This document shows, piece after piece, positions 13,118 through 17,117 of a DNA stretch of 47,800 nt; position 1 is the stretch's first letter, and every line of letters starts with the position of its first letter. Under the pieces are notes generated by a model, which saw nothing but the letters and a program-made list of their open reading frames with translations, was not told where the DNA came from and ran no database searches. Source of the stretch: a virus (Duplodnaviria > Heunggongvirae > Uroviricota > Caudoviricetes); the IMG/VR virus record IMGVR_UViG_2563366820_000002, positions 1 through 47,800 of that record; one strand, 5' to 3'. The translations under genes and the position numbers were made by a program.

Positions 13118-13963
13118 ATGACAAATACAGCAAAAATACTCAACTTCGGCAGAGGTAACTTTGCCGAACAGGAGCTAAGAGTGGCTGATATCGATGATGG
13201 TTACACCAGATTCGCTAACGAGCTGCTGGAAGCTATCGCAAGTGCCGATTTAACCGCTCGCCAGTTGAAAGTTATGCTGGCCTACGTCCGGAAAACATAT
13301 GGCTTCAATAAGAAAACAGATCGAATAGCCGATGAGCAAATTGCTCAGTTAACAGGACTGTCAAGGCAGAATGTTAACAAGGCTAAAAAAGAACTGATTT
13401 CAATGAATTGCCTGTTTATGGATGGAAATAAAATCGGTGTAAACAGGGAGGTATCTGCGTGGCAATTCAGCAAGTGTCTCCAAGTTAGCAACTTTGTCTC
13501 GAAGTTAGAGACAAAAAATGTCTCCAAATTAGAGACACTCAATGTCTCGAAGTTAGAGACACACAAAAGACATTCTTTAAAGACAAAAGAAAATATTAAT
13601 AAACCCCCTATATCCCCCAAAAAAGTTTCTCAGAAGTTCGACCCGCTAGAAACAGAGTTGCCTGATTGGTTATCAGCAGAAACATGGTTGTCGTGGGTTA
13701 CCTATCGCAAGGAGATAGGTAAGTCGATCAAGTCTAAGCAAAGTGTCACTCAGGCTATCAACGTTCTAAGCAGAAGTCTGGAGAAGGGATATACACCTGA
13801 AGAAATTATAAACCAGAGCATCGCCAGTGGTTGGCAGGGGATTTTTGAGCCCAAGACTCCAAAGGGGAAATCTCAACCGAGGCCGCAGCATCGAGCTATG
13901 CAGGAAAACTTTGCCACCAAAGATTACGGACAAACTGAAATGCCTTCATGGGCGCAGGAGTGA
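13118..13963 (+). CDS. O: Replication initiator O
   Basis: N-terminus MTNTAKILNFGRGNFAEQELRVADIDDGYTRFANELLEA... parallels lambda O; origin iterons lie inside the gene. Confidence 0.9.
   Translation: MTNTAKILNFGRGNFAEQELRVADIDDGYTRFANELLEAIASADLTARQLKVMLAYVRKTYGFNKKTDRIADEQIAQLTGLSRQNVNKAKKELISMNCLFMDGNKIGVNREVSAWQFSKCLQVSNFVSKLETKNVSKLETLNVSKLETHKRHSLKTKENINKPPISPKKVSQKFDPLETELPDWLSAETWLSWVTYRKEIGKSIKSKQSVTQAINVLSRSLEKGYTPEEIINQSIASGWQGIFEPKTPKGKSQPRPQHRAMQENFATKDYGQTEMPSWAQE
13471..13561. repeat. Replication origin iterons (four ~19-bp repeats, 24-bp period) followed by an AT-rich segment
   Basis: TGTCTCGAAGTTAGAGACA at 13495-13513 and 13543-13561, TGTCTCCAAATTAGAGACA at 13519-13537, degenerate copy near 13474-13492; AT-rich stretch to about 13610. 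Confidence 0.85.
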
Positions 13964-13965
13964 AC

Positions 13966-14811
13966 ATGACGCTGGATGAAAAGATCTCCCAACTGGAGAA
14001 AAAACTTGCAGAATTGAGTTCTCCGCCAATTGCTATCGAGCATACAGCTGTAGAAATTGGCACTGGCATCTGTGAAAAACATGGTGAGTTTGAGCAGCGT
14101 AACCGTTACTCGACTGGGCCAATTAAGTTTGCCTCAAGACCTAGCGAATGCCCGGAATGCATGAGAGATGAGCTTATTCGGCTACAGGCAGAGAAGATTA
14201 AAATCGACGAGGAATCACGTAAGCGCAATGTCGAGTTTCTGTTGAATAATCTTGATATTCCTGAACGATTCAAGGGTTGCACACTACAGAACTACGAGCC
14301 AGTTAACGACGATGCAAAGAGAGTGCTCAGGGTGTGTCAGGCATACGCCAGCAAATGGCCTGAGAGGTTACAGAAAGGCGGTGGGCTGGTTATGTGTGGA
14401 AAGCCTGGTACTGGAAAGAATCATCTTGCACTGGCTATCGCCCGGCACGCAATTACGGAACATCAAAGCTCAGCTATTTTCACAACGGCGCTGAAAATTG
14501 CCAGAGAATATAAATCAACATGGTCGAAAAACTCCACCCGCACAGAGGATGAAGTGATCAGACAGTTCACTAAACCTGACCTGCTAATTATCGATGAGGT
14601 TGGTGTGCAGTTTGGAAGCGAGGCGGAAAAGATGATCATGTTCGAAATCATCAACACCCGCTACGAGCGCATGAAGCCAACAATCCTGATTAGCAACCAG
14701 AGCAAAGATGAACTGTCTGCATTCATTGGTGAGCGTGTTATTGACAGGATGAATGATGGCGGCGGATGCACCCTTGCGTTTACATGGGATAGTTACAGGA
14801 GCAGATCGTGA
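13966..14811 (+). CDS. DnaC-like helicase loader (IstB-type AAA+ ATPase)
   Basis: Walker A GKPGTGKNHLA, Walker B LLIIDEVG; ATG at 13966 with AGGAG RBS just after the O stop. Confidence 0.85.
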   Translation: MTLDEKISQLEKKLAELSSPPIAIEHTAVEIGTGICEKHGEFEQRNRYSTGPIKFASRPSECPECMRDELIRLQAEKIKIDEESRKRNVEFLLNNLDIPERFKGCTLQNYEPVNDDAKRVLRVCQAYASKWPERLQKGGGLVMCGKPGTGKNHLALAIARHAITEHQSSAIFTTALKIAREYKSTWSKNSTRTEDEVIRQFTKPDLLIIDEVGVQFGSEAEKMIMFEIINTRYERMKPTILISNQSKDELSAFIGERVIDRMNDGGGCTLAFTWDSYRSRS

Positions 14812-15098
14812 CTGGAAAAGAAATCATCCTGGAATATCTGAAAACTCATGAACAATTCTCCCCACATGAATTAGCACTGATTACCGGAATACCAAATAAC
14901 AGAATCGCTCAAGCAGCAAGGCATATGGTGAAACAAGGGTATTTGAGTGTTGTTGAGCGTAAGTGGAAGACGGTTATTTATGCAAAACGCAAAGTGAAGA
15001 AGGAGCCAATTAAAAGAAATCCAGATGGTACGGGGTGGGGATGTGCAAATCCAATGACGGCGTTTATTAATAGGGTGCTTATGGAGGTAAGGCAATGA
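14808..15098 (+). CDS. Hypothetical protein, 96 aa, possible winged-helix
   Basis: GTG start overlapping the upstream stop; no family recognised. Confidence 0.55.
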   Translation: MTGKEIILEYLKTHEQFSPHELALITGIPNNRIAQAARHMVKQGYLSVVERKWKTVIYAKRKVKKEPIKRNPDGTGWGCANPMTAFINRVLMEVRQ

Positions 15099-15175
15099 CC
15101 ATCTACATCACTGAGCTAATAACAGGCCTGCTGGTAATCGCAGGCCTTTTTATTTGGGGGAGAGGGAAGTCATGA
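15095..15175 (+). CDS. 26-aa hydrophobic peptide ORF ([26 protein letters not shown])
   Basis: ATGA overlaps at both ends (upstream stop and ninB start); GGAGG RBS 7 nt upstream; encloses the tR2-like hairpin. Confidence 0.4.
   Translation: MTIYITELITGLLVIAGLFIWGRGKS
15124..15155 (+). terminator. tR2-like intrinsic terminator between the replication and nin regions
   Basis: 8-bp stem AGGCCTGC/GCAGGCCT, loop TGGTAATC, followed by TTTTTATTT. Confidence 0.8.
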
Positions 15176-15612
15176 AAAAACTAACCTTTGAAATTCGATC
15201 TCCAGCACATCAGCAAAACGCTATTCACGCAGTACAGCAAATTCTTCCAGACCCAACCAAACCAATCGTAGTAACCATTCAGGAACGCAACCGCAGCTTA
15301 GACCAAAACCGAAAGCTTTGGGCTTGCCTTGGTGACGTCTCTCGTCAGGTTGAATGGCATGGTCGCTGGCTGGATGCAGAAAGCTGGAAGTGTGTGTTTA
15401 CCGCAGCATTAAAGCAGCAGGACGTTGTTCCTAACCTTGCCGGGAATGGCTTTGTGGTAATAGGCCAGTCAACCAGCAGGATGCGTGTAAGCGAATTTGC
15501 GGAGCTATTAGAGCTTATACAGGCATTCGGTACAGAGCGTGGAGTTAAGTGGTCAGACGAAGCGAGACTGGCTATGGAATGGAAAGCGAGATGGGGAGAC
15601 AGGGCTGCATGA
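15172..15612 (+). CDS. ninB: NinB recombination protein
   Basis: [55 protein letters not shown]... matches lambda NinB as I recall it; ATG at 15172. Confidence 0.9.
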
Positions 15613-15785
15613 GGCGACAGCGACGAAGTATCACCGACATAATCTGTGAAAACTGCAAATACCTTCCAACGAAACGCTCCAGAAATAAACGCAAGCCAAT
15701 CCCAAAAGAATCTGACGTAAAAACCTTCAACTACACGGCTCACCTGTGGGATATCCGGTGGCTAAGACATCGTGCGAGGAAATGA
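15609..15785 (+). CDS. Nin-region small basic protein, 58 aa (NinD/NinE-like)
   Basis: ATGA overlap with the ninB stop; [23 protein letters not shown]... Confidence 0.6.
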
Positions 15786-16147
15786 CAATGAATTATTCAC
15801 AGTTAAGTGATTTTGAAATTAACAAGCGAGTGGCAATTTGCTGTGGATTTGCTCCCGAAGATTGCGAAATCGCAAAGTTGGGAACATCAATCGTTGGTGT
15901 TGAGTGGGATGACGAAACTGGTTATGCAATAAAAACGGTTGATTACTGTAAAAGCCCATCAGACGCAGAGCCGATTATCGTAGAGAACAGAATTGGCATT
16001 ATTCCAGCGCCAGAAAATGGATTATGGAAGGCAGCGCATAGAAAAGTTGGCAGTGATAGTACCCCATATCATATGACTCAAGATGAAAACCCACTCCGCG
16101 CTGCCATGATTGTCTTTCTCATGATGCAGGACGCCAATAATGCTTAG
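15782..16147 (+). CDS. Nin-region hypothetical protein, 121 aa
   Basis: ATG at 15782 overlapping the upstream stop; GAGGAA RBS. Confidence 0.6.
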
Positions 16148-16316
16148 CCCATCCCAATCCCTTCAATACCAGAAAGAAAGCGTCGAGCGGGCTTTAACGT
16201 GCGCTAACTGCGGCCAGAAGCTGCATGTGCTGGAAGTTCACGTGTGTGAGCACTGCTGCGCAGAACTGATGAGCGATCCGAATAGCTCAATGTACGAGGA
16301 AGAAGACGATGGCTAA
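16140..16316 (+). CDS. ninF: NinF, 58 aa
   Basis: [50 protein letters not shown]...; below the track cutoff. Confidence 0.75.
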
Positions 16317-16914
16317 ACCAGCGCGAAGGAAATGCAAAATATGCAAGGAATGGTTTCACCCGGCATTCTCAAATCAGTGGTGGTGCTGCCCGGAACACGG
16401 AACTCAGTTAGCACTCAAACTACAAAGTAAACAGCGAAAAAAAGCGGAAAAAGCAGCAGAGAAGAAACGACGACGAGAGGAGCAGAAACAGAAAGATAAA
16501 CTGAAGATTCGAAAACTCGCCTTAAAGCCCCGCAGTTACTGGATTAAACAAGCCCAACAAGCCGTAAACGCCTTCATCAGAGAAAGAGACCGCGACTTAC
16601 CATGTATCTCGTGCGGAACGCTCACGTCTGCTCAGTGGGATGCCGGGCATTACCGGACAACTGCTGCGGCACCTCAACTCCGATTTGATGAACGCAATAT
16701 TCACAAGCAATGCGTGGTGTGCAACCAGCACAAAAGCGGAAATCTCGTTCCGTATCGCGTCGAACTGATTAATCGCATCGGGCAGGAAGCAGTAGACGAA
16801 ATCGAATCAAACCATAACCGCCATCGCTGGACTGTCGAAGAGTGCAAGGCGATCAAGGCGGAGTATCAGCAGAAACTCAAAGACCTGCGAAATAGCAGAA
16901 GTGAGGCCGCATGA
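16309..16914 (+). CDS. ninG: NinG (Rap-like recombination-associated endonuclease)
   Basis: 201 aa with Cys/His-rich N-terminus and lysine-rich linker, as in lambda NinG. Confidence 0.85.
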
Positions 16915-17117
16915 CGTTCTCAGTAAAAACCATTCCAGACATGCTCGTTGAAGCATACGGAAACCAGACAGAAGTAGCACGCAGACTGAAATGTAGTCGC
17001 GGTACGGTCAGAAAATACGTTGATGATAAAGACGGGAAAATGCACGCCATCGTCAACGACGTTCTCATGGTTCATCGCGGATGGAGTGAAAGAGATGAGC
17101 CATTACGAAAAAATTGA
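16911..17117 (+). CDS. ninH: NinH, 68 aa
   Basis: ATGA overlap with the ninG stop; same length as lambda NinH. Confidence 0.75.

Follow-up and report, generated by a model that had tools for sequence, protein, structure and literature searches.

The tR2 signal of phage lambda is an N-antiterminated intrinsic terminator that is removed by the nin5 deletion. It is usually treated as an intergenic signal, yet natively it lies wholly inside a translated frame, that of the short gene ninA (lambda "Orf26"). tR2 looks intergenic because the RefSeq record of lambda (NC_001416) leaves ninA unannotated and PGAP usually omits the gene too. Records in which ninA is annotated include AJ237660, NC_002371 and NC_005344. 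In the phage 21 record AJ237660, the ORF was deposited as 'ninA: NinA protein', and a newer phage 21 record describes it through its 'Similarity to phage lambda Orf26'. The P22 record annotates ninA with a terminator feature inside the gene, as is also the case in the newer phage 21 and Sf6 records, and the Sf6 record labels the region 'gene 45 protein, similar to phage 21 NinA', 'bsq6; boundary sequence' and 'terminator; homology to phage lambda; tR2'. Furthermore, ninA is listed among the nin genes of lambda and P22 in papers, where the tight ATGA packing of the region has also been remarked upon. Literature searches on the function of NinA or Orf26 returned nothing relevant, and no report in which NinA was detected in the membrane.

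The influence of the NinA start site on tR2 has been measured by Li et al. 2016 (PMC4824070), who placed lambda tR2 and its native upstream sequence between RFP and GFP. The lambda tR2 hairpin terminates in these reporters with an efficiency of ~0.9. Construct W48, which carries the Shine-Dalgarno (SD) sequence and AUG of NinA, exhibited a termination efficiency of 0.721 and an upstream RFP signal of 4.8e4, compared with 0.862 and 1.0e5 when the SD was changed from GGAG to CCAG (W48-up1), and 0.870 and 1.2e5 when the AUG was changed to AAG (W48-up2). The sequence 3' of the T-tract was replaced in the W48 constructs, and neither the ATGA couplings nor the 3' end of the native locus is present. 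The authors concluded that the NinA start site 'is not weak' and that even this near a start codon a terminator retains most of its activity, and they attributed the loss of RFP in W48 to nonstop decay, since RNAs terminated at tR2 end inside the ORF. In its reference to the NinA start, the same paper credits Kroger & Hobom 1982 and a ribosome-profiling study (Liu 2013).

Here, we analysed the ninA locus of a 47,800-nucleotide stretch of DNA from a virus of the Caudoviricetes (IMG/VR record IMGVR_UViG_2563366820_000002, positions 1 to 47,800; hereafter, the window) and compared it with several hundred related loci. We propose, with a probability of roughly 60%, that ninA acts as a translated bridging cistron within the chain of nin genes, by which ribosomes would be handed across tR2 to the next gene on read-through transcripts, the efficiency of tR2 would be modestly lowered, and RNAs ended at tR2 would be made nonstop.

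Layout of the ninA locus

The 26-codon frame spanning positions 15095..15175 of the window (+ strand; ATG 15095-15097, TGA 15173-15175) is the known, named lambdoid-phage gene ninA, a short translated cistron enclosing tR2. Besides the ORF call, this assignment draws on a match to PHROG 5907 (E=1.6e-19, residues 1-26), a family of unknown function, and on exact identity of the peptide to UniRef K7PHM1, 'NinA protein', seen on 78 contigs. A tblastn search with the peptide returned 100% identity in many phages, and the 106 nt running from the ninA ATG into ninB are identical to those of phage lambda save for one synonymous ATC/ATT difference. The preliminary description of this DNA had reported a real ORF and its layout correctly, without recognising it as the named gene ninA. 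ninA DNA is present in 2,088 of 5,426 complete E. coli genomes (~38%), with up to six copies per genome and ~3,000 E. coli copies in total. Exact tR2/ninA matches were also found in assemblies labelled Pseudomonas, Oceanobacillus, Bradyrhizobium, Shewanella, Veillonella and others (L310, L313, L315, L323, L328 and more), several of them on ~48.4 kb or low-coverage contigs; most matches outside Escherichia and Shimwellia are most likely lambda control-DNA contamination of assemblies.

The gene preceding ninA (14808..15098, + strand) encodes a 96-aa Ren-like/MarR-like product (PHROG 1687, E=1.4e-39; PHROG 142, Ren-like, E=6e-13). Its TGA (15096-15098) lies inside the ATGA at 15095-15098 that holds the ninA start, as the preliminary description had claimed for this end of the ORF. 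The proposed GGAGG ribosome-binding site was likewise located at 15083..15087 (+ strand), 7 nt 5' of the ATG and within the last codons of the upstream gene. The duplex formed by this SD with the anti-SD amounts to -10.6 kcal/mol, a value reached by 0.4% of random intragenic positions.

A tR2-like hairpin had been placed inside the ORF, and it is indeed found there. The terminator hairpin (15124..15147, + strand) coincides with ninA codons 10-18 and consists of an 8-bp GC-rich stem, with arms AGGCCTGC (15124-15131) and GCAGGCCT (15140-15147), and the 8-nt loop TGGTAATC. Its energy is -15.7 kcal/mol (z = -2.9 against shuffles), and it is followed by the T-tract TTTTATTT (15148..15155, + strand), which is read as Phe-Ile-Trp codons. 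In the alignment, hairpin and T-tract have the same sequence as lambda tR2. The purine-rich ribosome-binding region of ninB, GGGGGAGAGGGAAG (15156..15169, + strand), encodes the Gly-Arg-Gly-Lys tail of NinA. Finally, the second ATGA (15172-15175), also anticipated in the preliminary description, joins the ninA stop to the ATG of ninB (15172..15612, + strand), which encodes the Orf recombination mediator (146 aa, MKKLTF...; PHROG 72, E=9e-59).

The surrounding region (window 13948..17117) comprises nine consecutive cistrons, each overlapping the next by 4 or 8 nt: DnaC-like, Ren-like, ninA, ninB, ninE, a 121-133-aa ORF, ninF, ninG and ninH. Together they form the classical 'chain of interlinked genes', a term of Kroger & Hobom 1982 as cited in PMC4824070 and PMC10695390.

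Conservation of the ninA frame and its junctions

Loci were gathered in four ways, by NinB, by the hairpin, by the 3' arm combined with different downstream contexts, and by the ninA 5' end with a non-lambda continuation. Upstream of ninA, seven junction classes were distinguished, representing six unrelated gene families: two Ren types, a DnaB-like helicase, and four products ending in ...KKKGGF, ...NVTEY, ...EREMKQ and ...NEEYWQ. In all seven, the upstream gene stops at -3 to +1 of the ninA ATG, and the SD duplex energy ranges from -5.9 to -11.6 kcal/mol. The weakest of these values is reached by 8% of random intragenic positions in the window, where the median for long-ORF starts is -4.9, and over six independent classes this gives a probability of ~3e-7. 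Because the SDs lie outside the block shared between loci, they have not been inherited with it.

Downstream of ninA, at least 11 unrelated genes were found, with start codons within 14 nt of the ninA stop (from 11 nt before to 9 nt after its first base) and, in one case, an in-frame fusion. The junction types include ATGA, GTGA, GTGGCTGA, ATGGTTAA and TAAATG. The empirical null for a start so near a stop is 0.38 per junction, giving P(>=10 of 11) = 5e-4. The tail of NinA varies with the gene that follows, reading GRGKS, GRVNRG, GRGKCG, GRGK, GRVIGGFKK, GRG, GGEK, GRGKHG, IKNEGDPDGHR, IKSEG or IGSER. In L112, L114, L117, L153 and others, ninB is absent after ninA, and the next gene often starts at GTGGCTGA or ATGGTTAA; the products of these genes have hydrophobic N-termini (VAEFMLVAFKCV, VADWQIPIIILA, MVNWMLAAIKCI), their first codons being common before they diverge.

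The same 5' codons of ninA are followed by any of three hairpin types, that of lambda, that of HK97/HK544 (gp56) and a third, and the frame is open through all three. The HK97/HK544 and third hairpins differ by a compensatory T-A to C-G change in the stem. Among 286 unique contexts, 262 have an intact start and a frame open through the T-tract; two are broken, and one carries W21stop. In about 20 of the 286, ninA codon 11 and the hairpin are separated by an HNH endonuclease-like gene, and the abutment of the HNH stop on the hairpin in these contexts implies that enclosure of the terminator by ninA is not obligatory.

In the HNH-containing locus L025 (758..1504; also L089, L165, L194, L390, L408 and others), the inserted 203-aa ORF (L025 841..1452) resembles an HNH/AP2-type homing endonuclease. 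Its TAA stop abuts the tR2 stem, and the ninA 5' end opens a new hydrophobic ORF of 34 aa, which overlaps the start of the HNH gene. A 61-63-aa ORF through the hairpin of such loci was considered as an alternative ninA and set aside as probably an off-frame artefact of the HNH gene 3' end. In two unique contexts, 18 nt of the tR2 hairpin are duplicated in tandem and in frame (GCAGGCCTGCTGGTAATC), a change that adds six codons to ninA and creates alternative stems.

The layout recurs with unrelated neighbours, and both SD strength and stop-start proximity exceed their empirical nulls; the arrangement is not a chance one. Taken together, the junctions, the SDs and a frame open through three different hairpins show, at the level of sequence comparison, that selection favours initiation of ninA, keeps the frame open across the terminator and maintains contact between the ninA stop and the start of the next gene. 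Translation of ninA is accordingly a selected property.

The same comparisons bear on a different explanation, namely that the block is kept mainly as a terminator and 'boundary sequence', a short shared joint in the DNA where recombination between lambdoid phages exchanges replication and nin modules, with the ORF as a tolerated by-product. Such a joint would fit the Sf6 record, which applies the boundary label, together with tR2, to exactly the ninA interval. It would also fit the extent of homology with other phages, which begins at the ninA ATG or at most 12 nt from it and ends past the T-tract or the SD, the occurrence of the same 70-80 nt between seven upstream and at least 11 downstream gene types, and the nucleotide identity of the ninA block, near 100% even between unrelated flanks. 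However, a pure DNA joint leaves unexplained the strong, well-spaced SDs of six unrelated upstream genes and the stop-on-next-start in at least 10 of 11 downstream contexts, both outside the shared block, as well as the in vivo activity of the ninA start site (PMC4824070). We consider this explanation highly doubtful.

Hydrophobicity of NinA and selection on the peptide

The preliminary description had suggested that the ORF may encode a small single-pass membrane peptide. A 19-residue stretch of NinA reaches a KD value of 2.04, which ranks it among the highest 1.2% of frame windows, and sums to ~+0.5 kcal/mol (+0.46) on the Hessa scale; a putative membrane peptide is plausible. In its full form, this explanation holds that NinA is a functional inner-membrane micro-protein, with its N-terminus out and its basic C-terminus in, that acts in trans on a host or phage target, while the terminator merely shares the DNA. 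It gains from the N-terminal MTIYITELI(T/A)G common to all four central alleles and from allele D (MTIYITELIAGLSLLMVLTVYIIKYILYANKKTN, HNH-linked), which has no terminator hairpin and is also highly hydrophobic. Among the other alleles, the lambda type is likewise high, whereas the HK97 type is weak (Hessa sum +2.9) and the third (allele C), which forms a fusion with the next gene, lacks hydrophobicity. Moreover, the hydrophobic core of allele A, the lambda type, is the GC stem and T-tract read in this frame, and the ninB SD supplies its Gly/Arg/Lys tail; across loci, the C-terminus varies freely according to which gene comes next.

Selection was assessed by counting distinct mutations in ascertainment-unbiased locus sets. 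Outside the hairpin, in codons 2-10, the synonymous mutations numbered 10 and the nonsynonymous ones 13, against 21:60 possible (omega ~0.46, P = 0.05-0.10), and the nonsynonymous replacements were mostly conservative. In codons 11-15, covering the 5' arm and loop, the counts were 3 and 7 (omega ~1.3), with L13Q (5 contexts), L13R, G11V and I15T falling in the supposed membrane core. An early count of 8:4 synonymous to nonsynonymous in codons 2-10, taken from haplotypes, weakened to 10:13 with more data, and we make no claim of clear purifying selection on the peptide. Selection on the NinA peptide is thus weak as judged from these alignments. The lean of codons 2-10 towards synonymous and conservative changes, together with the hydrophobic, terminator-free allele, suggests that the peptide itself may matter. 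Neither Pfam nor NCBIfam holds a family for NinA, and we know of no toxicity or other phenotype reported for it. Weighing both sides, we regard a trans-acting membrane micro-protein as a tentative and somewhat unlikely explanation, although it can coexist with a bridging cistron.

Translation of ninA and termination at tR2

According to the preliminary description, translation through the ORF might modulate termination, and mutation of its start codon would provide a check. Both points are addressed by the published lambda constructs, whose tR2 is identical in sequence. The rise in efficiency from 0.72 to 0.86-0.87 in the SD and AUG mutants corresponds to a fall in read-through from ~28% to ~13% (PMC4824070). 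The proposed direction of the effect is therefore supported, its size is modest, and tR2 still ends most transcripts; as regards the start codon, AUG to AAG does lower read-through at tR2 in a reporter construct. For the lambda sequence, these reporters show an active NinA start site, a modest effect on termination and a twofold loss of the upstream reporter signal.

Our own reading of the published data adds two points. In Table S4 (PMC4824070), constructs W38 and W43, in which the AUG has little or no SD and stands 8-13 nt past the RFP stop, terminate with efficiencies of 0.78 and 0.74, compared with 0.92 for W28, which suggests that terminating ribosomes restart at the NinA AUG. Furthermore, the native spacing of 26 nt between the upstream stop and the stem falls between those of W23 (0.83) and W28 (0.92); thus, a ribosome parked at the upstream stop would leave tR2 largely active.

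Another explanation is a leader-peptide-type attenuator, in which a physiological signal would set where the ribosome stands on ninA and thereby whether tR2 forms. The architecture resembles that of the pyrBI leader, where the terminator lies within the leader ORF (Table S9, PMC4824070), and ninA codons 8-9, just 5' of the stem, are the rare CTA and ATA. These codons are not conserved, however, being often replaced by common ones (CTT/CTG, GTA/ATG). An Rfam scan of the window returned no gathering-level match, and near the ORF just chance-level, sub-threshold ones; among them is Trp_leader (15049..15153, 19.8 bits, E = 0.17), which spans the ninA start through tR2 but falls far short of the gathering score (41) and probably reflects nothing more than the terminator. 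Neither the MFE nor the centroid structure contains a competing antiterminator helix, the measured ribosome effect is only ~15 percentage points (PMC4824070), and the known control of tR2 is N antitermination. An attenuator of this type is consequently extremely improbable.

ninB and its link to ninA

The preliminary description had also raised the possibility that translation of the ORF modulates ninB expression. A putative translational coupling of ninA and ninB would be consistent with the conserved stop-start overlaps. A mechanism in which the ninB ribosome-binding site is hidden by structure and opened by translation of ninA was unsupported, as no significant structure occluding that site was detected at the locus (z = -0.35). 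Neither ninA nor tR2 accompanies ninB in at least 13 loci (L012, L030, L033 and 10 or more others); there, the gene is near-identical and retains its own SD, and the sequence is homologous to the window only from AGAGGGAAGTCATGA, the ninB ribosome-binding site, onwards.

Discussion

The ORF observation was accurate and is not new, since ninA has been named for decades, appears in public records and has already had its influence on tR2 measured. It accordingly carries little weight as a discovery and some value as an annotation point. That a translated frame encloses tR2 bears on the interpretation of termination, nonstop decay and ribosome-polymerase coupling at a widely used model terminator.

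As a bridging cistron, ninA would operate as follows. Ribosomes ending the Ren-like gene would stop at the TGA of the first ATGA, and either these would restart or fresh ones would load on the strong SD at the ninA AUG. On transcripts carried past tR2, which in lambda would be mainly N-antiterminated, ribosomes would translate through the hairpin and terminate within the second ATGA, right where ninB starts, leaving the flow from replication genes into nin genes unbroken. A ribosome present in ninA early enough would hinder folding of the hairpin and approximately double read-through, and transcripts ended at tR2 would end inside ninA and hence be non-stop mRNAs that would be rescued and degraded. 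We infer the hand-over of ribosomes to ninB, as well as translation rather than the peptide as the main selected property. Several observations count against the bridging cistron: the effect on termination is small, tR2 keeping ~72% efficiency (PMC4824070), ninB is also found without ninA, and plaque formation does not require the nin region as a whole (PMC10695390). The HNH contexts, the lack of significant occlusion at the ninB ribosome-binding site and the hints that the peptide matters weigh on the same side.

A stronger version would make the placement of tR2 inside a translated frame a selected design, in which un-antiterminated transcripts become non-stop ninA mRNAs whose tmRNA rescue and nonstop decay lower the upstream replication genes in the absence of N, and/or in which NinA is a functional single-pass membrane micro-protein. 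The halving of upstream RFP and its restoration by mutations of the NinA start (PMC4824070) show the physical effect to be real. This stronger version nevertheless appears quite unlikely to us.

Comparison with described systems places ninA closest to its lambdoid namesakes. Small hydrophobic peptides such as the type I toxins Ibs and ShoB have ~20-35 aa and one hydrophobic stretch, a size like that of NinA. In contrast to these toxins, ninA was seen without an antisense RNA or a dedicated promoter, and constraint on its peptide is weak in the core. With attenuators of the pyrBI type, ninA shares a short ORF that is read through an intrinsic terminator and a hairpin that a close-following ribosome would suppress. 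It differs from them in lying inside an operon and being coupled to the upstream gene, in a hairpin just 30 nt from the start, in the small size of the effect, and in having no known sensing signal and no antiterminator alternative. The ninA genes of lambda, phage 21, P22 and Sf6 have the same peptide as the NinA entries, the same place between a replication or ren gene and ninB, the same ATGA couplings and the same enclosed tR2, and gp56 of HK97/HK544 is a ninA variant with another hairpin and a longer tail. From lambda ninA there is no substantive difference, although the upstream partner here is a diverged Ren-like/MarR-like gene and the SD GGAGG is stronger than the GGAG of lambda. The ATGA coupling of the lambda nin region is likewise reproduced, with 4-nt overlaps at both ends of ninA as at other junctions from the DnaC-like gene to ninH. 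Compared with the other links of this chain, ninA is the shortest by far and the sole one with a terminator inside.
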